Shown here piece by piece: positions 23,913 through 34,134 of a stretch of DNA of 34,134 bases. Under the pieces are notes generated by a model. The model saw only the letters and a list, made by a program, of their open reading frames with translations, did not search any database and was not told where the DNA came from. The number at the start of each line of letters is the position of its first letter. The stretch's first letter is position 1. The translations under genes and the position numbers were made by a program. This stretch comes from a bacterium (GTDB lineage: Bacteria; Babelota; Babeliae; Babelales; RVW-14), in the NCBI GenBank assembly GCA_043822925.1, contig JBDRBF010000065.1, forward strand, positions 1 to 34,134, written 5' to 3'.

Positions 23913-24030
23913 AAATCAGTGTTTTAGTGCCCCCCCCCCATTTGATAATTTTATACAGACATATACACTTATTCTGTAAGACGTATGTGTCTTTTTTCTT
24001 TGGGGGACTTTATTTAATGGGGGATCTATT

Positions 24031-24681
24031 ATGGTATCTGTACGTAATTTGAGACTTTTGCAGTTAGCATTGGTTTCTTCTTTTTTAATACTTGGGTCTT
24101 CTGTGCATGCAACAAAACTGGTTTCAGACTCAAGCGATGTATCTACTCAGACATTTAGTCAACAAGAACTTAATAAAATAGTTGCAGAAGAGCTTGTTGT
24201 AAATTCGCCGATAAGCTCTCCAGGAGATATGGAAAGCTTTCTTGCTCAACATAGTGTTATTAGAAAAGAACTGTCTAAATATAATGTTACTGGATACTCG
24301 TCTTGTCTTGATGGGAATTTTGCATTTTTCTTTAACAGACAGAATCCAGTGTTTTGGGTTAATTTTAAAGATGATAGCGGAACTGTAATGTCAAAACGTT
24401 ATCAGGCTGCTATTTGGTCGTTTGGTTTAAAGTTTGAGTTGGCTTTTAAGTTAGACTTTATCTTCTTAGTGAATACAGATTCTTGTTTTTATAATATAGA
24501 AAAACCAATCAATTTAAGTTGCGGTGTGGACGTAAATGCAAGTTTTGGTCTAGGGTTTACTTTTACTTATGTTCCATTTGCAGATGTTTCTGGTGGTATG
24601 ATTATTATTGGAGTGCCAATAACACCTAGTATCCTAAGTTATAGTATTGTTACTGGTGGATCGTTGACTCCTCTCGCGTAA
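24031..24681 (+). CDS. Hypothetical secreted protein with a beta-rich C-terminal half
   Basis: GGGGGA RBS; signal peptide ending SVHA; 216 aa. Confidence 0.75.
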   Translation: MVSVRNLRLLQLALVSSFLILGSSVHATKLVSDSSDVSTQTFSQQELNKIVAEELVVNSPISSPGDMESFLAQHSVIRKELSKYNVTGYSSCLDGNFAFFFNRQNPVFWVNFKDDSGTVMSKRYQAAIWSFGLKFELAFKLDFIFLVNTDSCFYNIEKPINLSCGVDVNASFGLGFTFTYVPFADVSGGMIIIGVPITPSILSYSIVTGGSLTPLA

Positions 24682-24724
24682 CTTCGGTTAATTTCTTGAA
24701 AATAAAAGAAGAGTGCTTGTTCTA

Positions 24725-24744
24725 GAGGTTTTCTAGAAAACCTC
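24725..24744. repeat. Perfect 20-bp palindrome
   Basis: GAGGTTTTCTAGAAAACCTC is its own reverse complement; intergenic. Confidence 0.6.
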
Positions 24745-24761
24745 AGAGCGCTGTCTAAATT

Positions 24762-24805
24762 AAAAGAGGCCTGTAGATGTAAAAAACTATGGACCTCTTT
24801 TTTTT
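24762..24805 (+). terminator. Intrinsic terminator-like hairpin
   Basis: AAAAGAGGCC...GGACCTCTTTTTTTT. Confidence 0.55.
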
Positions 24806-24825
24806 GTTAAAAAATAGAAGAAATA

Positions 24826-25087
24826 TTACAGGAGTAAGATTTTTGTGGTTTTTAATTGCAAAAGCTGATACAAGATTTATAAGTGATGTATCAGCTTTGA
24901 AGAACTTGGACGATATATGGCAAAACAACTTGCAGATAGCTAAGGCAAGCAAGCGATGAGCATGAGAGACCTTGAAGAACGAATGATGAAATATATAGAA
25001 TTAAGATGCAAGCCGCCGCAAGAGATTCGGTCATCAGGAAGTTCAGCCTGGCCGCTTGTATTTTTCTTAAAAATTCTTGAAAAATAG
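24826..25087 (+). pseudogene. Degraded paralog of the downstream 25161-25760 gene
   Basis: YMAKQLADS*GKQAMSMRDLEERMMKYIE...GSSAWPLV versus FIAKQLAISPVLNVKNLEDNLRSYIE...GSNFWRYI. SDVSA (other frame) versus SDVPA. Same TTACAGGAG RBS context. Confidence 0.7.
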
Positions 25088-25160
25088 TTTTGAGATAATT
25101 TTGAGTTTATCCGTATTTGTGATAATAGGCGTGTTGGTTTGAGAAATTTACAGGAGCTTT

Positions 25161-25760
25161 GTGATGTCGTTTTTATGCAGTATGAGAATGTTTCAATCTT
25201 TGCTTTTTTCTTTGTGCTTATTGGTTGGCTATTCAGTAAAGGCTAAAAATATAGTTACCAGTGATGTGCCTGCTCAAGCACAGGACGCTATCGGCATGCC
25301 GTTGAGTGATGTTGATATGCAAAAGCTTTCGCTTAAGGTTGAAGAATTTATAGCCAAGCAGCTTGCAATTAGTCCTGTATTAAACGTGAAAAATCTTGAA
25401 GATAACTTAAGAAGTTATATCGAAGAAAAAATGAAGAACGTACGTGTTGGTAACGTAAGAGGCAGTAATTTCTGGAGATATATAGCGCTTGTTGCTGGTG
25501 GAGTTACTATTTTGACCCTAATATATACGTTTATCAAGTTGAATGAGATCTCTCAATTGCAGGAAAAAGTAGAAAAACTTGAAAAGACTATTGAGCAAAA
25601 TACACAAGATTGTAAGCGATTGAGCGAAACACAGAAACAACCTGATGTTGTTGAGCAACTTTTATCAGGATTGCTAAGAAAAATGCCTATAGATGCAAAG
25701 TTCCTTGTAGGTGCTGGGTTAGATGAGAAAATTTTTAATCCTGGTAATTTTATAAATTAG
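25161..25760 (+). CDS. Hypothetical membrane protein (signal peptide, TM, coiled coil)
   Basis: AGGAG RBS; YIALVAGGVTILTLIYTFI TM; QLQEKVEKLEKTIEQ heptads. Confidence 0.75.
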   Translation: MMSFLCSMRMFQSLLFSLCLLVGYSVKAKNIVTSDVPAQAQDAIGMPLSDVDMQKLSLKVEEFIAKQLAISPVLNVKNLEDNLRSYIEEKMKNVRVGNVRGSNFWRYIALVAGGVTILTLIYTFIKLNEISQLQEKVEKLEKTIEQNTQDCKRLSETQKQPDVVEQLLSGLLRKMPIDAKFLVGAGLDEKIFNPGNFIN

Positions 25761-25791
25761 AGAAAAATAAATATAGAAGATTTTTAATCTA

Positions 25792-25836
25792 ACAAAAAAG
25801 AGGTCTGGATATTTTGTCTCCAGACCTCTTTTTTGT
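25792..25836. terminator. Bidirectional intrinsic terminator between convergent genes
   Basis: ACAAAAAAGAGGTCTGGA...TCCAGACCTCTTTTTTGT. Confidence 0.85.
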
Positions 25837-25861
25837 GTGGGTGTTAACGAGATACTTTTTT

Positions 25862-25890
25862 TTGTCATCCTGGACTTGATCCAGGATCCA
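25862..25890 (+). repeat. Palindromic element family C
   Basis: TTGTCATCCTGGACTTGATCCAGGATCCA hairpin; relatives at 17926-17954, 27163-27187, 2924-2935 and 32182-32191. Confidence 0.75.
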
Positions 25891-25902
25891 AGCCGTTTGT
25901 TC

Positions 25903-27144
25903 TTAGGTGTTTTTTTTATCTAATTCTTTCTTAAATATAAATAACAAAGTAACCGCGCAAAAAGCAACAATACTTGTAAAATAAAGTGCGATGTTTGATC
26001 CCATATATTGCCAAAGTAGGCCGATAGTTGCTCCAGCAGCTAAAACTATTATTCCTGTAATAGTATCAAAAACACCCAGTGCCGTAGCGCGTATATGGGC
26101 TGGTATCAGGTCAGAAGCAAATGCTTTGTGGTTAACTTTAATAATTGCCAGTGTTATGCCATACAAAATAAATAATAAAATAAGTGATGTGAGAGATTGT
26201 GCGAAAGCAAAACTAAGCGTTAGACTTGCAAACAAAAAGTAGCCAAACACGAGTAATTTCCAGCGGCCAATTTTGTCTGATAGTGCGCCAATCGGTATAG
26301 CAAAAATGGTGTAAGAAATATTAAAAAGCACGTAAAGCAAGATAGGTGTTACGGTTGATGGTGAGTTGGGTAAAAGTTTTTGGGCTTTGATAATAAAGAA
26401 CATATAACTTAGGTTTGAGAGTGAAAAGATGCTCGCGATAATCGTGAATGTTTTAAACGCTGGTGTTAGTTGTGAGAATGTTATTTTTTGTTCTTGGGCG
26501 TGTGTCTGCTGGTTTTTGGTTGGCGTAGGTGTTTGCTCATGGGCATTTGTGTTTTCTTGTATTTGCATGTGAGTATTTTCTTGTACCCATAATAATGGAA
26601 TAAGTGAAAGTAGGGCGATAGCGGCGGAACATAAAATAATCGTCTGAAAATTAATGTGCCAGTGCCAGAGCATAAAGAACACGACGAGTGATCCCAAAAT
26701 GGCACCAATAGTATCAAGTGCTCGGTGCACGCCAAATCCCAACCCCTTATTATTTGAAGACGATTCAGCAATAAGCGCATCGCGTGGTGCTGTGCGCAGC
26801 GCTTTGCCAATACGCTCAAGGCCAACAAGACTAAATATAAATATCCAGGATTGCGCAAGAGCGAGAAAGAGTTTAAAAAATGCCGATGTGCCGTAGCCTA
26901 AGTAAATAAAAATTTTTCTTTTGCCTATTTTGTCTGATGTATAACCTGCAAAAAGTTGCAAGATGTTTGCAAAACCCTCACGTACTCCGCCGATTAAGCC
27001 TATAGCTAGGCCTGCGCCTCCTAGTTGTGTAATCAAAAGTGGGAGTATGGGGGTGATCATTTCGCTACTTAGGTCATTAAGTAGGCTTGAGCTCCCGAGT
27101 AACAGAATGTTTTTAGGAACATTTTGCTCTTTTATGTTAAGCAT
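25903..27144 (-). CDS. MFS transporter
   Basis: NDLSSEMITPILP, GYTSDKIGKRK, ERIGKALRTAPRDALIA, GALSDKIGRW; about 12 TM segments. Confidence 0.93.
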   Translation of the reverse strand: MLNIKEQNVPKNILLLGSSSLLNDLSSEMITPILPLLITQLGGAGLAIGLIGGVREGFANILQLFAGYTSDKIGKRKIFIYLGYGTSAFFKLFLALAQSWIFIFSLVGLERIGKALRTAPRDALIAESSSNNKGLGFGVHRALDTIGAILGSLVVFFMLWHWHINFQTIILCSAAIALLSLIPLLWVQENTHMQIQENTNAHEQTPTPTKNQQTHAQEQKITFSQLTPAFKTFTIIASIFSLSNLSYMFFIIKAQKLLPNSPSTVTPILLYVLFNISYTIFAIPIGALSDKIGRWKLLVFGYFLFASLTLSFAFAQSLTSLILLFILYGITLAIIKVNHKAFASDLIPAHIRATALGVFDTITGIIVLAAGATIGLLWQYMGSNIALYFTSIVAFCAVTLLFIFKKELDKKNT

Positions 27145-27306
27145 TTTTTCTTTCTTGGTTTCTTGTCATTTTGAACTTGATTTAGACTTAAGAGCCTTGT
27201 TTTTATTACTATAATTACATTGATAATAAAAAAACAAGATTACTCAAAGAAAAGCTGTTAAGTATTTATTTTTATGGCATTATTCAGAGCTAACAATGTG
27301 TAGCGG

Positions 27307-28017
27307 GTGAGCAAGTTTTATTTTTTCAAGAAAGTTTTGAGTGTGAGTATTATTTGTAAAGTTTTATTTGTTTTATTTATATTTGGCGTCATGAGTTCTG
27401 GAATCCATTCTATGCAAAAAGATACAGCTAAAAAAATAGAAAAAAAACTTTCGCTATTTTTTTTCTGGTTTGGTGACGTTTTGATTAAAAAGTTTGAAGA
27501 TTTTGAAGATTTTGAAGCTTTGAAAGATGTAAATTTAAGTGAAGACATAAAAAGGATTAAGTCGGTGAAGAATTTTTTTAAAAAGGAACTGGCCCGTTTT
27601 GAGGTTGCTTGTTTTGCTTTTAATGTATTTATAAATAAAATCAAACCAAGAGAATTTGGTTTGATTTGTGATCAAGAGCGAGAATGCTTTGATTTGATGA
27701 GTGATGATGTTTTGATTAAAAAAGAGATGTTTTATAAAGATTTTATGTCTATTTTTAGACAGGAAGCTGATCGTTTAAATTTTAAAGAGATTTTGTGCAA
27801 TTTGAGGTCCCATTTTGGGATTTTTTTTAACGCACAACGAGCGAGGCTTAGCCTGTTATTTGAGGTGTTTGATGCTTATTTAGAAGAGCGAGATGTGCGG
27901 TTGACTGAAGGCTTAATAAGTGGCACTTCAAAACCACAGAGCGATATATCTTTAGGCGAAGATGGATCTGAGGGGGAGCAAGGTGATGAAGTATATGGGG
28001 AAGGGGTTTGTTTGTAG
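27307..28017 (+). CDS. Hypothetical secreted protein with an acidic tail
   Basis: Hydrophobic leader ending GIHS-MQK; 236 aa. Confidence 0.7.
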   Translation: MSKFYFFKKVLSVSIICKVLFVLFIFGVMSSGIHSMQKDTAKKIEKKLSLFFFWFGDVLIKKFEDFEDFEALKDVNLSEDIKRIKSVKNFFKKELARFEVACFAFNVFINKIKPREFGLICDQERECFDLMSDDVLIKKEMFYKDFMSIFRQEADRLNFKEILCNLRSHFGIFFNAQRARLSLLFEVFDAYLEERDVRLTEGLISGTSKPQSDISLGEDGSEGEQGDEVYGEGVCL

Positions 28018-28100
28018 TCTGGGCTATTATTGAGCTTTTATTCACAAAGAGTTCTGTTTTTACACGTTTTTAAACATTATTATTTATGAGGAAACATTTT

Positions 28101-28538
28101 ATGAAAACTATCGCAAAAATTTTATTGGGTGTTGTTTTAATGAGTTGCGTTGTTTTTTCAGTGCAGGCTACAAAACGATATGGGAAATTTGTTGAACCAA
28201 AGACGTGTGTTGAGGTGGCAATTGAAAAAATTTGCATGATTTTGCAAGAATTTAAAGAGTTTCCTGAGCGCATTGCGCGTATAACTCAAGACCTTGAGTT
28301 ATGCATGGGTAAATTAAAAAAAGAAAAAGAATACGATCTTCTTAATTGGAGTTGTTGTTATATGACAAGTGAGTTTGTGGCTAAGTTTACATCGGAACAG
28401 GTTTATGAGTGCTTTTTTAAGGCTATTAAGTTGTTAAAGATAGATGTAAAAAGTCTTAAAGAGATAAAAAATACTGCGCAGGAAAATAATTATGAACAGG
28501 TGTCTAACTTTTTTAAAGAATATATCATAAAGAATTAG
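28101..28538 (+). CDS. Hypothetical secreted protein
   Basis: GAGG RBS before the ATG at 28101; signal peptide ending SVQA. Confidence 0.7.
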   Translation: MKTIAKILLGVVLMSCVVFSVQATKRYGKFVEPKTCVEVAIEKICMILQEFKEFPERIARITQDLELCMGKLKKEKEYDLLNWSCCYMTSEFVAKFTSEQVYECFFKAIKLLKIDVKSLKEIKNTAQENNYEQVSNFFKEYIIKN

Positions 28539-28604
28539 TGTTGTTTTTTTGGACCAAGACCCGCTTGATCGTGAATTTTGTTGTTTGAAAAAAGGGGAAA
28601 AGAG

Positions 28605-29786
28605 ATGTGGTCTAAGCTTTTTGTAATAGTTTTTTGTTTTATGGTTAGTGGATTTAGTGATAGCGAGCTTTTTGGTCGTTCACGTAAAAAGTGTGAGCCG
28701 TGCAAAATGGTAGTTATTGCTCCTGTTGCTGATGTGCGGGTAAAAGCTGAGCCGGTAAAAAAAGGGGTCATAGCTCCTGCGCTTTCAGGTGATATTGGTG
28801 GGCAGTTAACGCAGGTTTTTTTAGGCGACCATGTTTTGGGAACTAATATTCCTGGTAAAAAAAAGTGGATGAGCGTCGATGTTCTTGGGCAAAAAGTTTT
28901 TACAAATAAAAAAACGCTTACAGATAAAGACACGTTTGTTCCATTAACTGGGTTTATGAAAAAGTCCCAGCTTGCTCAAGTATCAGATTTTTTGCAGCAT
29001 ACTATTGTGCTGCGTAATTTATGGACGCCGCTTTATAAACGCCCAGATGTGAAAAGTAAGATTTTAAAGCATGTGTGCATGGGAACGGTTCTGGGGGCAA
29101 AAAAATTTAATGGTAATTGGCTTGTCGCGTTTGTTGGGAATAAAAAATATTATCTTACCTGGCCTGCAGGCATTGGTGTTTTGCATGAGTTTAATCAAGA
29201 TAGTGATATTTCAAAAAAAATAGACGCGTTACGTAATAATATTATTAAGACAGCGTTACAGCTTGTTGGTACGCCGTATGTTTTGGGTGGCAGAAGTGGG
29301 GCTGGGAATATGGCGGGGCAAATTCTGGGTATAGATTGTTCAAAGTTTACAAGTTTGGCGTATCTAGCTGGCGCAGGTCTGACTATCCCGTGCAATTCGA
29401 CGTCTCAAAAATGCGCATGTACTCAGCTGCTTACAGGCGCAGATTTAAAGCCTGCTGATTTAATATTCTTTCACGATGATACGTGTAAAAGTATAAATCA
29501 CGTTGCTTTGTATTTGGGCGATGGCATGATGCTTGAAAGTGCTATCCCAACAAAAGAGGTTATATATTTCGCGCAAGACGCAAAGAAATATGGAGTTGAC
29601 CTAAAAGATTGCTGTGTGAAAAAAATATCGGTAAAAGAGAGAATTGGCGTTGATGTTAAAAAAATCAAAAATGGCAAAACGCGGGCTCTTGATGGCCGGC
29701 GTATTATGCTTGGGTCTCTTTTGAATTCTGAAGAAAAAATAAAAAAAATGCGCTTGCTTGCCTGTGGGCGTGATGTTAGTTGGTAA
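28605..29786 (+). CDS. NlpC/P60 (C40) peptidase with SH3b-like N-terminal domains, YkfC-like
   Basis: VIAPVADVR, GTPYVLGG, GIDCSKFT, PADLIFF, HVALYLGDG. Confidence 0.9.
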   Translation: MWSKLFVIVFCFMVSGFSDSELFGRSRKKCEPCKMVVIAPVADVRVKAEPVKKGVIAPALSGDIGGQLTQVFLGDHVLGTNIPGKKKWMSVDVLGQKVFTNKKTLTDKDTFVPLTGFMKKSQLAQVSDFLQHTIVLRNLWTPLYKRPDVKSKILKHVCMGTVLGAKKFNGNWLVAFVGNKKYYLTWPAGIGVLHEFNQDSDISKKIDALRNNIIKTALQLVGTPYVLGGRSGAGNMAGQILGIDCSKFTSLAYLAGAGLTIPCNSTSQKCACTQLLTGADLKPADLIFFHDDTCKSINHVALYLGDGMMLESAIPTKEVIYFAQDAKKYGVDLKDCCVKKISVKERIGVDVKKIKNGKTRALDGRRIMLGSLLNSEEKIKKMRLLACGRDVSW

Positions 29787-29815
29787 AAACTTTAGGAAAT
29801 TGCGTGGTTAGAGAT

Positions 29816-30937
29816 ATGTTTAGAACTCTTGGGCTCGCGTGGTTGCTTTTGTGCATGTTTTTTTATGGCGAGATATTTGCTTGGCGTAAAATGGTGGTTA
29901 ACATTCCTGTTGCAAATGTGCGTTTAGAACCTGAGCATATCAAAGAGGGGATTACAGTTCCCGCATTGTCTCAAGATATTGGACCGCAAGGTACGCAGGG
30001 GTTGTTTTTAGAGTCTATTTTGGGTGAAAAATTAGAAAATTCTGATTGGATAGCCGTGATGGTTCCTGGTCAAAAAATTTTTACAAAAGAAAAAGAGTGG
30101 GCTAATCATCCTGGGTTTGTGAAAAAAACAGACTTGATAGATGTAGAAAACTTCCCAAATTATACTATTGTTTTACAGGACTTATGGACGTCGCTTTATT
30201 CAGTGGAAAATAAAAAAAGTGATGTGATTATGTCGCTATCAATTGGAACTGTATTGCCGGCAAAAAAAATAGACGATAATTGGTTTGAGATAATATGTGA
30301 AGGAAAAAAGTATTATATAGAAGCTTGTGCTCATGTTTATGATTTATCTCGCGAAGTGCGCGAGGATACTGTTAAAATGCGTGAGAATATCGTGAAGGTT
30401 GCGCGAGCCCTTGTTGGCATACCATATGTATGGGGAGGGAGAAGTGCATATAATCCTGATCTTAAAAATCAAATTACGGGGCTTGATTGTTCCAAGTTAA
30501 CGAGTATAGCTTATTTAGCGGGAGCAGGGCTTGCGATACCATGTGGCTCACGTTCTCAAAAGTGTGCGTGCGATATTATTGATCAGGGGACAGATTTAAA
30601 GCCGGCCGATTTAATCTTTTTTTACAATCGTGAGACGGGGGTAGTTTCTCATGTAGCGTTATATCTTGGAGATGGGTTATTGATAGAGAGCACGGTTCCT
30701 ACTATCAAAAATGTAAATTCTCTTCAAGAGGTTATAGAGATAGGGGTTGCGCCTGAAAAGTGCTGCGTGAGGATAATTTCAGTAAAAGAGCGCATAGGTG
30801 TAGATGTTGCTCAACTTGAAAGTGGTAAAACCGTGGGACCAAATAATAAAATTATTATTCTTGGGTCGCTTTTGAATTCTGAAGAAAAAATAAAAAAAAT
30901 GCGCTTGCTTGCTTGTGGGCGCGATGTGAGCTGGTAG
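29816..30937 (+). CDS. NlpC/P60 (C40) peptidase, tandem paralog
   Basis: VNIPVANVR, GIPYVWGG, GLDCSKLT, HVALYLGDG. Start uncertain (GTG 29804 or ATG 29816). Confidence 0.9.
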   Translation: MFRTLGLAWLLLCMFFYGEIFAWRKMVVNIPVANVRLEPEHIKEGITVPALSQDIGPQGTQGLFLESILGEKLENSDWIAVMVPGQKIFTKEKEWANHPGFVKKTDLIDVENFPNYTIVLQDLWTSLYSVENKKSDVIMSLSIGTVLPAKKIDDNWFEIICEGKKYYIEACAHVYDLSREVREDTVKMRENIVKVARALVGIPYVWGGRSAYNPDLKNQITGLDCSKLTSIAYLAGAGLAIPCGSRSQKCACDIIDQGTDLKPADLIFFYNRETGVVSHVALYLGDGLLIESTVPTIKNVNSLQEVIEIGVAPEKCCVRIISVKERIGVDVAQLESGKTVGPNNKIIILGSLLNSEEKIKKMRLLACGRDVSW

Positions 30938-31102
30938 GGTAGAAAGTTCTTGTTCTGAAAAATAAATATAAAAAAGATTTAGGTTTTGTTGTGAGCAGAT
31001 TTTTAAAAAAAGCTGTTGCAAAAGCTTTTTTTTTGTTCAAAATGATCTCCCGCTTATTATTGAGCGTTTTTTATTATTTTTTTATTATTTAAGGGTTTTT
31101 GT

Positions 31103-31492
31103 ATGAGGTTGTTGTCTGGAATTTTACTGAGCATTGGTTTTGCGAGTTTTTTTGTTTATCTTTCTGTACATGCAATAAAGCTTGATTCTGTTGAGTTGCT
31201 AGATGAAAAATGCGAATCTATGGAGCTTATTATAAAAAAAATGCTTTATTTTCAAGACAATAAGCAGAAATTTGATATAGCGGCGCAGGAGCTGGATAAT
31301 TTTTGTATAAAAAATTTCTTATATGACAGTGGGATTTTTTTTAAAAAAGTAGCGAAGAAGCTTAAGTTGAAAAAATCGATGATTAAGAAATTTCAAAAGA
31401 TGTGTTTTTTTAATGAGACGGGCGTTTTTGTGTATGATGCAAAGTATCAACATGCATGGGCGTTATTTTTTAATTATTTAATAGATAATTAG
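31103..31492 (+). CDS. Hypothetical secreted protein
   Basis: Signal peptide ending SVHA; weak similarity to the neighbouring ORF. Confidence 0.65.
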   Translation: MRLLSGILLSIGFASFFVYLSVHAIKLDSVELLDEKCESMELIIKKMLYFQDNKQKFDIAAQELDNFCIKNFLYDSGIFFKKVAKKLKLKKSMIKKFQKMCFFNETGVFVYDAKYQHAWALFFNYLIDN

Positions 31493-31504
31493 TGAGTTTG
31501 TTAT

Positions 31505-32101
31505 ATGAGATTTATGGCAACAGTTTTATTGAGTATTGTTTTGTTATGTGTCGTGATAGATAGCTCTGTGCAAACAATGAAGAGAACAGAGAGTTTTGTG
31601 CGTATAGAGATTGAGCAAGACGAGCTAGAGTATCAACAGGAATCGGAAGATTGTAAGTTTTTAGGTAAGATATTACAAAAATTGAGTGAGTTTGAAGAGC
31701 TTACTAATTTAAAGTACTGCAAGGCGTTTAAGACCGTAATTGTCGCTTTGAATTGTTTTTGTAAAAAAAAATGCAAAGAAAATTGGAACCTATGGATTTC
31801 TTTCTTTGAAGAAAAAATGAATCAGCTTGGGTTAAAAGATGAATTAATTAAGATGTCATATGATGCGTTGCTTGAAATAGAGACTTTTGATGACCTTTAC
31901 TTGCGCCCTAGTGAAGTATTTAAGCATTATTTAACTCGGAAAAAATATAAGAGTAGTGTTGAAGCTGGGACTGTTCAGGGAATGAATGGAACATATCGAA
32001 AAGCATTTATTACGGGCAATATATATGAAGAGCCTGATGATGGTGCTGAAGAGTCTGATGATAGAGCTGAAGCGCCGGATTTGGGTAAGAATTGCGAGTA
32101 A
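31505..32101 (+). CDS. Hypothetical secreted protein with an acidic tail
   Basis: Signal peptide ending SVQT-MKR; 198 aa. Confidence 0.7.
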   Translation: MRFMATVLLSIVLLCVVIDSSVQTMKRTESFVRIEIEQDELEYQQESEDCKFLGKILQKLSEFEELTNLKYCKAFKTVIVALNCFCKKKCKENWNLWISFFEEKMNQLGLKDELIKMSYDALLEIETFDDLYLRPSEVFKHYLTRKKYKSSVEAGTVQGMNGTYRKAFITGNIYEEPDDGAEESDDRAEAPDLGKNCE

Positions 32102-32129
32102 TTTTTTTAATCTTATGAAGTTATATTGT

Positions 32130-32167
32130 TAGCCCTGTGGAAGCTTTCCATGGGGCTATTTTTTTTT
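32130..32167 (+). terminator. Intrinsic terminator, copy 1 of a 42-bp direct repeat
   Basis: TAGCCCTGTGGAA-GCT-TTCCATGGGGCTA followed by T9. Confidence 0.85.
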
Positions 32168-32541
32168 GGGGAAATGGTACAGGGATGACAAAGAAAAGGT
32201 ATTGGGGAACTTTGGGATAAGATGCTTGAAATTCATGTTGCATGGTAGCTATCCTGCAAAAAGCGAAGGGGCACAAGATAGTGACGCTTTTTTTTATGAG
32301 CTTTGTTGCTGTTATAAAAATATCTATTTTTGATTTATAGCCAAAAAATATCTTGAAGAACGGGAAACGATTGATCTATTGTTGTTTCTATAGAGTTTAT
32401 CTGAAATAAAAAAAGCTGGGTGCTTATGCTTCTTTTGCCACACAAAAAACAGGCTTAATTGACTTTGCTTTGTCAGTTTCTCTAAATTAATAATAGAAAT
32501 TCTATATTGCGACAATTTTATTGGGTAAAAAGGGGGAAATC

Positions 32542-33810
32542 GTGAAAAAGAGATTGTTATTTTTACTTGTGTTGGCAACAAGTTTTGTTGATACAGCAGG
32601 CATCTGGTCTATGCAAAAAGAAGAAGATATTGGGATTAGTAAAGGGCTGCAGCAAAAGACGCCTGTAAAAGATGAGAGGGGTGTGATTTTTGAAAAAATA
32701 GATGCATTACATAATAAAACTACACAAGAAGAAACATTTGTAACTAAAGAGCTTGTTAGCCATGTCCTTGATATTCGTTTTGATTTGCCATTTAAACCAA
32801 CACTAACAGAATTAGAACAAATCGAAACGATACGCGACAAAAATGCTGAGCTATCACCTGGGGCAGAAATTGCAGGGTTGCATGAAAAACAAACGTGGAG
32901 AGCAAAGTTTTTTTCCTGGATTTTTCCATCATTATTATCTGAAAGCTGGGGTAAAAAGTTGTGGCAATTTGCCGCGGACAATGTCCGGGATCAACAGGTT
33001 GCAAGCGAAATTCGTGAGCGATATTTGGCAAATAAGTACAGAGAAAAACTCACGCTTACTGGCCATACAAAAGGGGTAGAATGTGTAGAAATAGCCCCTA
33101 ATGGGAACATTGTTACAGGATCTTATGACAATAAAGCAAAGATATGGGATCCAAATACGGGGCAATGCCTACACACACTTAATGGACATATAGGTTCAGT
33201 TTGGAGCATAGCAATAGCTCCTAATGGGAACATTATTACAGGATCTGGTGACTATACCGCAAAGATATGGGATGCCAGTACGGGGCAATGCTTACGCACG
33301 CTTGCTGGCCATACAGGTCCGGTATTCGGTGTAGCAATAGCCCCTAATGGGAACATTGTTACAGGATCTGGTGACCATACCGCAAAGATATGGGATCCAA
33401 ATACGGGGCAATGCCTACACACGCTTAATGGACATACAGATTCAGTTCGGAGCATAGCAATAGCTCCTAACGGTAACATTGTTACAGGATCTAAAGACGA
33501 TACTGCAAAGATATGGAATCCAGACACAGGGCAGTGCCTACACACGCTTACTGGCCATAGAAAAGCGGTATACAGTGTAGCAATAGCTCCAAACGGGAAC
33601 ATTGTTACAGGATCTTGGGACAATACCGCAAAGATATGGGAACCATGGAGCAAGACACCATCAACAACAATGCAAGCCGCTCTTGTGGCAAAGTTATTTG
33701 ACCTAAAAGACAAAAATCAAACAATACGTTTGCATGCAGAGTGGCAAGAAGTGTTTGACGGTTTGCCGGACAACGTAAAAAATGAATTAAGAATTTGTAT
33801 AAGAGCATAG
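32542..33810 (+). CDS. Secreted protein with five high-identity 41-aa WD40 repeats
   Basis: AGGGGG RBS with GTG at 32542; signal peptide ending GIWS-MQK; repeats LxGHxxxVxxxAIAPNGNIVTGSxDxTAKIW. Confidence 0.93.
   Translation: MKKRLLFLLVLATSFVDTAGIWSMQKEEDIGISKGLQQKTPVKDERGVIFEKIDALHNKTTQEETFVTKELVSHVLDIRFDLPFKPTLTELEQIETIRDKNAELSPGAEIAGLHEKQTWRAKFFSWIFPSLLSESWGKKLWQFAADNVRDQQVASEIRERYLANKYREKLTLTGHTKGVECVEIAPNGNIVTGSYDNKAKIWDPNTGQCLHTLNGHIGSVWSIAIAPNGNIITGSGDYTAKIWDASTGQCLRTLAGHTGPVFGVAIAPNGNIVTGSGDHTAKIWDPNTGQCLHTLNGHTDSVRSIAIAPNGNIVTGSKDDTAKIWNPDTGQCLHTLTGHRKAVYSVAIAPNGNIVTGSWDNTAKIWEPWSKTPSTTMQAALVAKLFDLKDKNQTIRLHAEWQEVFDGLPDNVKNELRICIRA
33055..33645 (+). repeat. 123-bp tandem DNA repeats encoding WD40 units
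   Basis: Units start at 33055, 33178, 33301, 33424 and 33547. Confidence 0.9.
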
Positions 33811-33855
33811 CTCAATAGTTAAAAGATGGGGGCGATAGCTCCCAAAGTATATTGT

Positions 33856-33889
33856 TAGCCCCGTGGAAGCTTTCCATGGGGCTATTTTT
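33856..33889 (+). terminator. Intrinsic terminator, copy 2; insertion target of the intron
   Basis: TAGCCCCGTGGAA-GCT-TTCCATGGGGCTA-TTTTT, then GTGCG. Confidence 0.85.
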
Positions 33890-34134
33890 GTGCGCCGGGC
33901 ATGGCGCACTTTCTAGGAGTGAAAGTCTCTCACAGGCCGGAATGACCGGAACTGTACGTCTAGGCAAGGGTGTTCACCGTGAGGTGAAATCTGAAGGAAG
34001 CTAACGACGAAAATATGGATCCAACGAACAGGAACTGGATACAAGGCCTGCGCGATAGGTAATTCGGCAATAGACGAAGAGGCCGTATAGTCATTTGTAT
34101 ATCGTGGTGGTAAATCCAGTGGAGCCCATGTGAA
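33890..34134 (+). mobile_element. Group II intron, class IIC, 5' portion (domain I); truncated by the window end
   Basis: Starts GTGCGCCGGGCATGGCGC (GUGYG). Contains GTGAAAGTC and GGCAAGGGTGTTCACCGTGAGGTGAAATCTGAAGGAAGC, typical of IIC domain I. Lies 5 nt after a terminator stem. Confidence 0.88.

Follow-up and report, generated by a model that had tools for sequence, protein, structure and literature searches.

Several kinds of strain-variable segments lie between short direct repeats, such as islets, cis-mobilisable elements with att sites, and the pdif modules of Acinetobacter. In an integron, several cassettes form an array in which each one ends in an attC site, a hairpin that has imperfections and extrahelical bases. 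Class C (IIC) group II introns are described, in passages of two papers (PMC4424553; PMC1702495), as inserting at terminator motifs and encoding a reverse transcriptase (RT) without the endonuclease (En) domain, and a subset of them, the IIC-attC introns, has been proposed to link genes with attC sites (Leon and Roy 2009, as quoted in parts of PMC7923331 and PMC3001079). Here, a locus from a bacterium of the phylum Babelota (order Babelales) is described, in which a WD40-repeat gene lies between two copies of a 42-nt terminator-like hairpin and a group II intron follows the second copy. The locus is at the end of a 34,134-nt window, which is the whole contig C65 (JBDRBF010000065.1) of the 86-contig, 1.52-Mb, 92% complete assembly GCA_043822925.1; the other C-numbers below are contigs of the same assembly.

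It is probable that the terminator of the upstream gene (gene 1) was duplicated behind the WD40 gene, that the block so bounded has been gained or lost, and that the intron is a passenger on the terminator, with no integron machinery involved. Like islets, att elements and pdif modules, the unit on C65 consists of an accessory gene flanked on either side by a direct repeat, of which a single copy is left in an empty allele. Unlike them, it has no recombinase or mobility gene beside it, and its repeat is a functional-looking terminator.

Two haplotypes at a duplicated terminator

The two copies of the 42-nt unit (Table 1) are identical at 41 of the 42 positions and are spaced by 1,726 nt from start to start. 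Two matches of the 42-mer were obtained in none of 100 dinucleotide shuffles. The unit is composed of 8 nt, a GC-rich stem of 13 bp with a 3-nt loop, and a T-run, T9 in copy 1 and T5 in copy 2. The stem is perfect, includes 6-7 G-C pairs and folds in the same way in both copies; the sole mismatch changes a G.U pair in copy 1 to a G-C pair in copy 2, and the longest exact stretch common to both is at most 27 bases. Folded as DNA, copy 1 (G.T in the stem) has an energy of -10.0 kcal/mol and copy 2 one of -12.5 kcal/mol. The sequences flanking the 42 nt are unrelated between the copies, and both edges of the repeat are sharp. Copy 1 begins 20 nt past the stop codon of gene 1, and copy 2 begins 37 nt past that of the WD40 open reading frame (ORF). 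They are the two top-ranking terminator-like sites in the range 24000-34134. A GC-rich stem-loop and a T-run shortly after a stop codon constitute an intrinsic (Rho-independent) terminator; the 42-mer is predicted to be that of gene 1 and may be expected to act as such in vivo.

Logan contigs of four public runs, which are assembled contigs and not raw reads, were compared with the region 31400-34134. A 1,515-nt contig from run X1 (record 1) extends from gene 1 through copy 1 and the spacer into the start of the WD40 gene, and contigs from runs X1 (record 7) and X2 (record 15) connect the 3' end of the WD40 gene via copy 2 to the intron. Because independent contigs span both junctions, the two-terminator form is real. 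Run X5, from another study, includes a 285-nt contig (record 24) of a depth of ~5, which covers 32080-32166 and then continues with 30 letters identical to the sequence past the 3' end of the intron on C35, as compared letter by letter by eye. Therefore, C65 and C35 are neighbours, and an allele exists in which the terminator of gene 1 abuts an intron relic, without the WD40 unit and without the intron. The 1,726-bp WD40 segment is strain-variable and is bounded by the repeat. Gaps in the runs cannot be read as absence: coverage by X4 is patchy, and X5 lacks contigs over 32596-33883.

The window, a contig of metagenome type, has a repeat at its end, as might be expected if two loci or strains had been joined by the assembler at a common hairpin. 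The probability of such an artefact is close to nil, given the spanning of both junctions by independent contigs of two runs. A chimera in the assembly graph is also unlikely because the 27 exact bases shared by the copies are fewer than the assembly word, assumed to be k = 31.

Searches for further copies of the hairpin were negative. No third copy of the 42-mer was found in the 1.52-Mb assembly with up to three mismatches, the 29-nt hairpin core had no exact match in two public collections (metagenome_contigs and genome_contigs), and a scan of 200 other genomes of the order, allowing up to three mismatches, did not recover the hairpin. These results bear on the alternative that the hairpin is a small mobile or copyable module, similar to repetitive extragenic palindromes (REP) or miniature inverted-repeat transposable elements (MITE), which was placed separately behind both genes, the one-terminator allele being a later deletion. 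Sharp repeat edges and unrelated flanks would fit such a module, and the genome includes four Y1 nuclease genes as well as other terminator-like hairpins with sharp edges, each with 2-3 nearby copies in a genome-wide scan. However, the many dispersed copies typical of REP and MITE were not found: the only two copies are 1.7 kb apart, and the hairpin is unlike the ends of the Y1 elements on C83 and C5. Separate placement of a mobile hairpin is thus considered unlikely.

The class C intron and an older relic behind the hairpin

The intron begins with GTGCG at 33890, directly after copy 2. The Rfam model of group II domains 1-4 (RF02001) matched 33973-34134 with 117.6 bits, where the gathering score is 32, and the match spans model positions 1-160 of 170, ending at the contig edge. 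Its 3' end with domains V and VI was located on C35, where the positions 17435-17360 are matched by RF00029 over the full model (1-77) with 35.3 bits (gathering score 40; E-value 3.4e-5) and a fold z of -5.6. A complete but decayed copy on C41 is 91% identical to the C65 copy over 245 nt and lies behind a different hairpin with a T-rich tail. The RT/maturase frame of the C41 copy is disrupted by frameshifts, stops and an internal deletion.

The N-terminal RT fragment of the C41 copy matched 5hhj, 6ar1, 5hhl and 7uim with E-values from 2e-27 to 5e-26, and it matched 6me0 and LtrA with E-values of 1.4e-10 and 5e-8, respectively. We take 5hhj, 5hhl and 7uim to be IIC enzymes, 6me0 a IIB enzyme and LtrA a IIA enzyme, and 6ar1 is named GsI-IIC RT in its record. 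The C-terminal RT fragment aligns to residues 325-412 of the 428-aa GsI-IIC RT; ending at residue 412, it is therefore without an En domain. By these RT matches, the lack of the En domain and the location after terminator hairpins, the intron is classified as class C.

Three sites of the intron are known in this organism, and they follow three different hairpins with T-runs: the site on C65, that on C41, and that of an almost identical copy in run X2 (contig aligned to 33887-34088), which shows one difference in ~200 nt. The third hairpin, preceding the X2 copy, is not in this assembly with up to three mismatches; at 92% completeness of the genome, this does not prove its absence. The X2 copy suggests recent mobility of the intron and a polymorphic insertion. 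Class C introns have a short IBS1-EBS1 pairing (3-4 bp) and IBS3-EBS3 but no EBS2, and the part of domain I concerned lies partly past the end of C65. The characters agree with those of class C introns such as B.h.I1 of Bacillus halodurans: insertion in the sense direction a few bases past a GC-rich stem-loop and T-run, an RT without En that is nearest to IIC RTs, the 5' GUGCG, domains V and VI, and copies behind differing terminators. No essential difference was recognized; it is specific to this genome that one copy is decayed and one adjoins a truncated relic of a second family.

This relic is located on C35. After the 3' end of the intron come TT, ~165 nt reading as the C-terminus of a maturase, and then separate domains V and VI. 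The maturase C-terminus is in frame up to the T-run, as read by eye, and the end of domain VI, CCCGAT, is 4 bases from the stop codon of a convergent HtrA-like gene. The hairpin of gene 1 is a retro-targeting site that has been used twice, by the present intron and by the older one that left the truncated relic.

Whether the intron carries its hairpin along was addressed by scanning its 5' 20-mer in public genomes, which yielded 63 loci. A strong hairpin ends within 10 nt upstream of the junction at 38 of them, and 31 of these 38 hairpins have a T-rich tail. One metagenome-assembled genome (MAG) of Zetaproteobacteria (loci L014-L072) has 17 copies of a related intron 5' end, whose flanks are at most 57% identical. 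Only three pairs of flanks are more than 80% identical; all three are between different genome records, and two are between species of one genus, judged by their titles. Transduction of the 5' hairpin by the intron was ruled out by the unrelated hairpins and flanks at other copies. Because copies elsewhere follow unrelated hairpins, the intron family lands behind many different terminators and carries none along. The 17 copies of the MAG are mostly at contig ends, each behind a different terminator hairpin; such introns fragment assemblies.

Template switching is a property of group II RTs, and introns of yeast mitochondria co-convert sequence of the 5' exon. An intron-borne origin of the duplication can be imagined on this basis: during homing, the RT would have switched templates or copied an unspliced precursor, and the WD40 segment and a second terminator would have been laid as cDNA upstream of the intron. 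The right edge of the repeat is exactly the 5' splice site of the intron, and the segment and the intron are jointly present or jointly absent in both haplotypes, as this route would predict. However, ~295 nt upstream of the promoter-like region, including an antisense gene fragment, are unlike a copied mRNA, and the identity of the terminators is not explained by the route. Neither the 17 copies of the MAG nor the three sites here have a carried-over 5' flank. Retro-capture is therefore regarded as very unlikely.

An earlier note, made from the letters of the window alone, had reported the duplicated 42-bp sequence behind two unrelated genes, the first copy empty and the second directly before GTGCG, and had recognized a group IIC intron inserted after the terminator stem-loop of the second copy. 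Coordinates and identity were reproduced, copy 1 is intron-free both in the assembly and in an independent contig spanning 31400-32760, and RF02001, the RT matches of the C41 copy, the lack of En and the three hairpin sites agree with the proposed class. Of the RT/maturase ORF and the domains V and VI expected downstream, the domains are on C35, and the RT frame was read on the decayed C41 copy alone. The note had also anticipated empty alleles, a gene order differing between strains and copies of the 42-mer elsewhere in the genome. An empty allele is present in the contigs of X5, with the terminator of gene 1 joined straight to the relic; the gene order does vary by this allele lacking the WD40 segment and the intron, while the copies of the 42-mer amount to the local pair and no dispersed array.

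Comparison with integron cassettes and other repeat-bracketed genes

The unit on C65 resembles an integron cassette in three respects: its single gene has a hairpin behind it, IIC introns target this hairpin, and the unit varies between strains. It differs from integrons in the absence of IntI and of the R''/R' cores, in the perfect 13-bp stem, and in the number of copies, which is two. The repeat is also a 42-nt identity, in contrast to the 7-bp core of integrons. Neither the core sites RYYYAAC and GTTRRRY nor the variant RYYYACC (PMC7923331) were found on either strand of either copy. The hairpin, with its 3-nt loop, has no extrahelical bases. Its membership in attC is ruled out by the missing core sites and by this geometry. 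The intron is co-oriented with the genes, in contrast to IIC-attC introns, which a passage of PMC7923331 describes as lying opposite to cassette transcription.

None of the five other ORFs of 27307-32101 is followed by the hairpin. Tyrosine recombinases were found neither among the 26 ORFs of the window nor among five ORFs scanned in the last 10 kb of C35, one of which encodes a DDE (rve) transposase. In the whole genome, matches to PF00589 are limited to C31, C23 (32575-33120) and C32. Among the matches listed in literature searches, there was no report of a terminator-bracketed cassette with a group II intron.

These data separate two parts of a proposal in the earlier note, which had interpreted the hairpin as a recombination or retro-targeting site assembling an integron-like accordion of secreted-effector cassettes, with no integrase in view. 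Retro-targeting holds, with two uses by introns. The assembly of an integron-like array on this hairpin is not supported, given the two copies, the absence of attC cores, the other ORFs of the array without the hairpin and the sense orientation of the intron. The remark on the integrase was correct for C65, and it can be extended to the examined 10 kb of C35.

A genome-wide survey identified 41 pairs of direct repeats of 28-160 nt, which are at least 88% identical, 0.25-8 kb apart and on the same strand. Eleven of the 41 pairs were examined and their inner genes were scanned (Table 1). Three of the four Y1 nuclease genes also lie inside direct repeats (C2, C68 and C83). Many of the 41 pairs contain hairpins, and some of the remaining pairs are no cassettes but lie in coding sequence of a paralogous or repetitive nature. 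The unit on C65 is one instance of a recurrent repeat-bracket pattern. Its likeness to the Y1 (IS200-like) nuclease cassettes consists in a single-gene unit inside a direct repeat with hairpins, which is 40-130 nt long in the nuclease cassettes. In contrast to these, the WD40 unit has neither a nuclease gene nor inverted hairpin ends, and its repeat is unrelated in sequence. On C9 (17064-23200; L009), a terminator hairpin followed by (TA)n and a conserved stretch of 60 nt occurs three times between metallophosphatase paralogues.

A further alternative regards the WD40 unit as a cassette that can be excised, in the manner of an integron or Xer module. A tyrosine recombinase would act in trans on the hairpin as its core site, whose inverted arms of 11 bp enclose a centre of 7 nt. 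Direct repeats around a strain-variable single-gene unit, the recurrence of bracketed modules, and the three tyrosine recombinase genes elsewhere in the genome would agree with this. However, one site-specific enzyme cannot explain the modules because each has its own repeat. Two copies without attC cores, with no recombinase on C65 or in the examined part of C35, also speak against it, and the T-run and the place right after stop codons fit a plain terminator. Site-specific recombination is slightly less probable even than retro-capture.

Composition, origin and significance of the WD40 unit

The positions of all features are listed in Table 1. The protein of gene 1 belongs to no Pfam family and has no paralogue in the genome. 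Among the 200 genomes of the order, nothing beyond one weak match containing stops was found for it, and in metagenome_contigs it is present at one locus (L081), which ends inside gene 1 with the downstream region not covered. At the DNA level, a locus orthologous to 31100-33889 was not found in 40 relatives, and the matches in other genomes amounted to two short ones.

The spacer does not have the make-up of a clean promoter. On its minus strand, around 32289-32400, is a frameshifted fragment similar to residues 141-178 of a 686-aa secreted protein encoded on C23. The promoter, 5' untranslated region (5'UTR) and start region at 32456-32558 resemble their counterparts in that C23 gene, with the relative orientation reversed. 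The inverted gene fragment and the common 5'UTR and start lie in 32276-32558 of the window and in C23:17436-18080. The C23-like fragment and the common 5'UTR and start suggest that the WD40 gene was built by rearrangement. Rfam, with E-values up to 10, indicated no intron relic hidden in the spacer.

For the WD40 gene, the analogy with the C23 gene favours GTG at 32543 as the start, although the frame is open from TTG at 32521 too. The GC content at third codon positions (GC3) of the ORF is 0.49; 13 other genes of the window, among them two further WD40 genes (15417-17823), range from 0.24 to 0.37, and a foreign origin of the ORF is suggested by this difference. No paralogue of the N- and C-terminal domains is present in the genome. 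The coding part appears acquired, and the spacer upstream resembles local debris. The WD40 repeats at 33048-33662 show a tandem periodicity of 123 nt with 74-85% identity between the DNA units, which suggests recent internal expansion. WD40 and similar repeat domains are on record for the phylum Dependentiae in a part of PMC4776705.

The WD40 gene is the only long sense ORF inside 32164-33847, and terminal inverted repeats were not found at the ends of this region. In lacking such repeats and an internal transposase, the unit does not conform to a transposon with a target-site duplication. Elsewhere in the window, at 28578-30937, two tandem NlpC/P60 paralogues are present, whose last 84 nt (29702-29785 and 30853-30936) are 93% identical; these ends are far closer to each other than most of the genes, and gene conversion may be the cause.

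Table 1. Features of the C65 locus and related features on other contigs of the assembly.
Feature	Location	Strand	Remarks
Gene 1, orphan 198-aa ORF	31505..32101	+	From the ORF list; hydrophobic N-terminus
Terminator copy 1 (predicted)	32122..32163	+	Stem-loop 32130-32158, T-run 32159-32167; without intron
Spacer	32164..32542	+	Apparent rearrangement debris; blastn 78% and 72%, tblastn E 1e-7
WD40-repeat gene	32543..33810	+	N-domain, five Pfam WD40 repeats in 123-nt units, short C-domain
Terminator copy 2 (predicted)	33848..33889	+	Stem-loop 33856-33884, T5; 5' exon of intron
Class C group II intron, 5' 245 nt (domain I)	33890..34134	+	Stops at contig end
Intron 3' end (domains V/VI)	C35:17499-17360	-	96% identical to C41 copy; terminal ...CCCGAU
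5'-truncated relic, second IIC-like family	C35:17357-17193 (locus L012)	-	Maturase C-terminus and domains V/VI
Similar 5'-truncated relic	C66:10004-10145		83% identical to C35 relic
Complete but decayed copy of the intron, ~1.54 kb	C41:31805-30267 (locus L003)	-	RF02001 125.9 bits, full model
AAA_35 ATPase	C3		Inside direct-repeat pair
Schlafen/HATPase_c_4 protein	C83		Inside direct-repeat pair
Gp49-like toxin and HI1420-type antidote	C63		Inside direct-repeat pair
MazF-like toxin (toxin-antitoxin pair)	C42		Inside direct-repeat pair
Leucine-rich repeat (LRR) protein	C11		Inside direct-repeat pair
Tectonin/propeller protein	C20		Inside direct-repeat pair; repeat overlaps ORF end
Metallophosphatase-ankyrin protein	C9		Inside direct-repeat pair, within paralogue array
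195-aa ORF of unknown kind	C19		Inside direct-repeat pair

The following course of events would account for the locus. The 1,726-bp unit of spacer, WD40 gene and terminator lies between direct repeats and would have been acquired or lost in one piece, for which recombination at the hairpins, or between the two copies, is the simplest route. Independently, class C introns have used the hairpin and T-run as a landing site: an old intron of the second family landed there and left its 5'-truncated relic, and the younger intron now sits between copy 2 and the relic. The intron would be a passenger on the terminator and not the builder of the cassette. For the duplication itself, an insertion that duplicated its hairpin-bearing target is favoured, as may have occurred around other accessory genes of this genome. 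Microhomologies of 3-4 nt are present at both junctions of the unit, AAG before each copy and the T-run after copy 1, and are weakly indicative of a replication-type insertion that re-copied the hairpin-bearing target.

Several points weigh against this explanation. The one-terminator allele is known from a single 285-nt contig of low depth, and the same run, X5, also has a contig identical to 32320-32577; both forms may coexist in X5, or the spacer may sit elsewhere in that strain. Termination at the hairpins is predicted from the fold and the T-run; among the public runs that include the stretch, none is on record as RNA. The class of the copy on C65 and C35 is assigned from the RT of the 91%-identical C41 copy, by sequence matches. 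Gene 1 is an orphan, and hence there is no close relative for comparison. Only two copies are available for tracing the origin of the duplication. The change may have been an insertion or a deletion, and either the one-copy or the two-copy form may be the older. GC3 points to a foreign origin of the WD40 gene, and the native-like debris of the spacer suggests a longer local history.

A broader generalization, which we consider rather improbable, is that accessory genes generally enter this reduced genome at terminator hairpins. DNA synthesis stalled there, or an enzyme working on the hairpin, would insert foreign or shuffled genes, copy the hairpin to either side and give integrase-free cassettes of WD40, ankyrin, LRR, toxin-antitoxin, defence ATPase and Y1 nuclease genes, which would be able to loop out again, and class C introns would compete for the same hairpins. 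If this is true, the unit on C65, together with its empty allele, would be the first example observed in either state.

The locus agrees better with known processes than with a novel machinery for capturing genes. It offers a clean natural case in which class C introns have used one terminator repeatedly, a living copy now adjoining a relic, and an example of a eukaryote-like repeat gene that is a presence/absence polymorphism bounded by a duplicated terminator. One common cause of the repeat-bracket footprint, if true, would explain the integron-free shuffling of host-interaction and defence genes in small genomes, and it is offered here as a lead.

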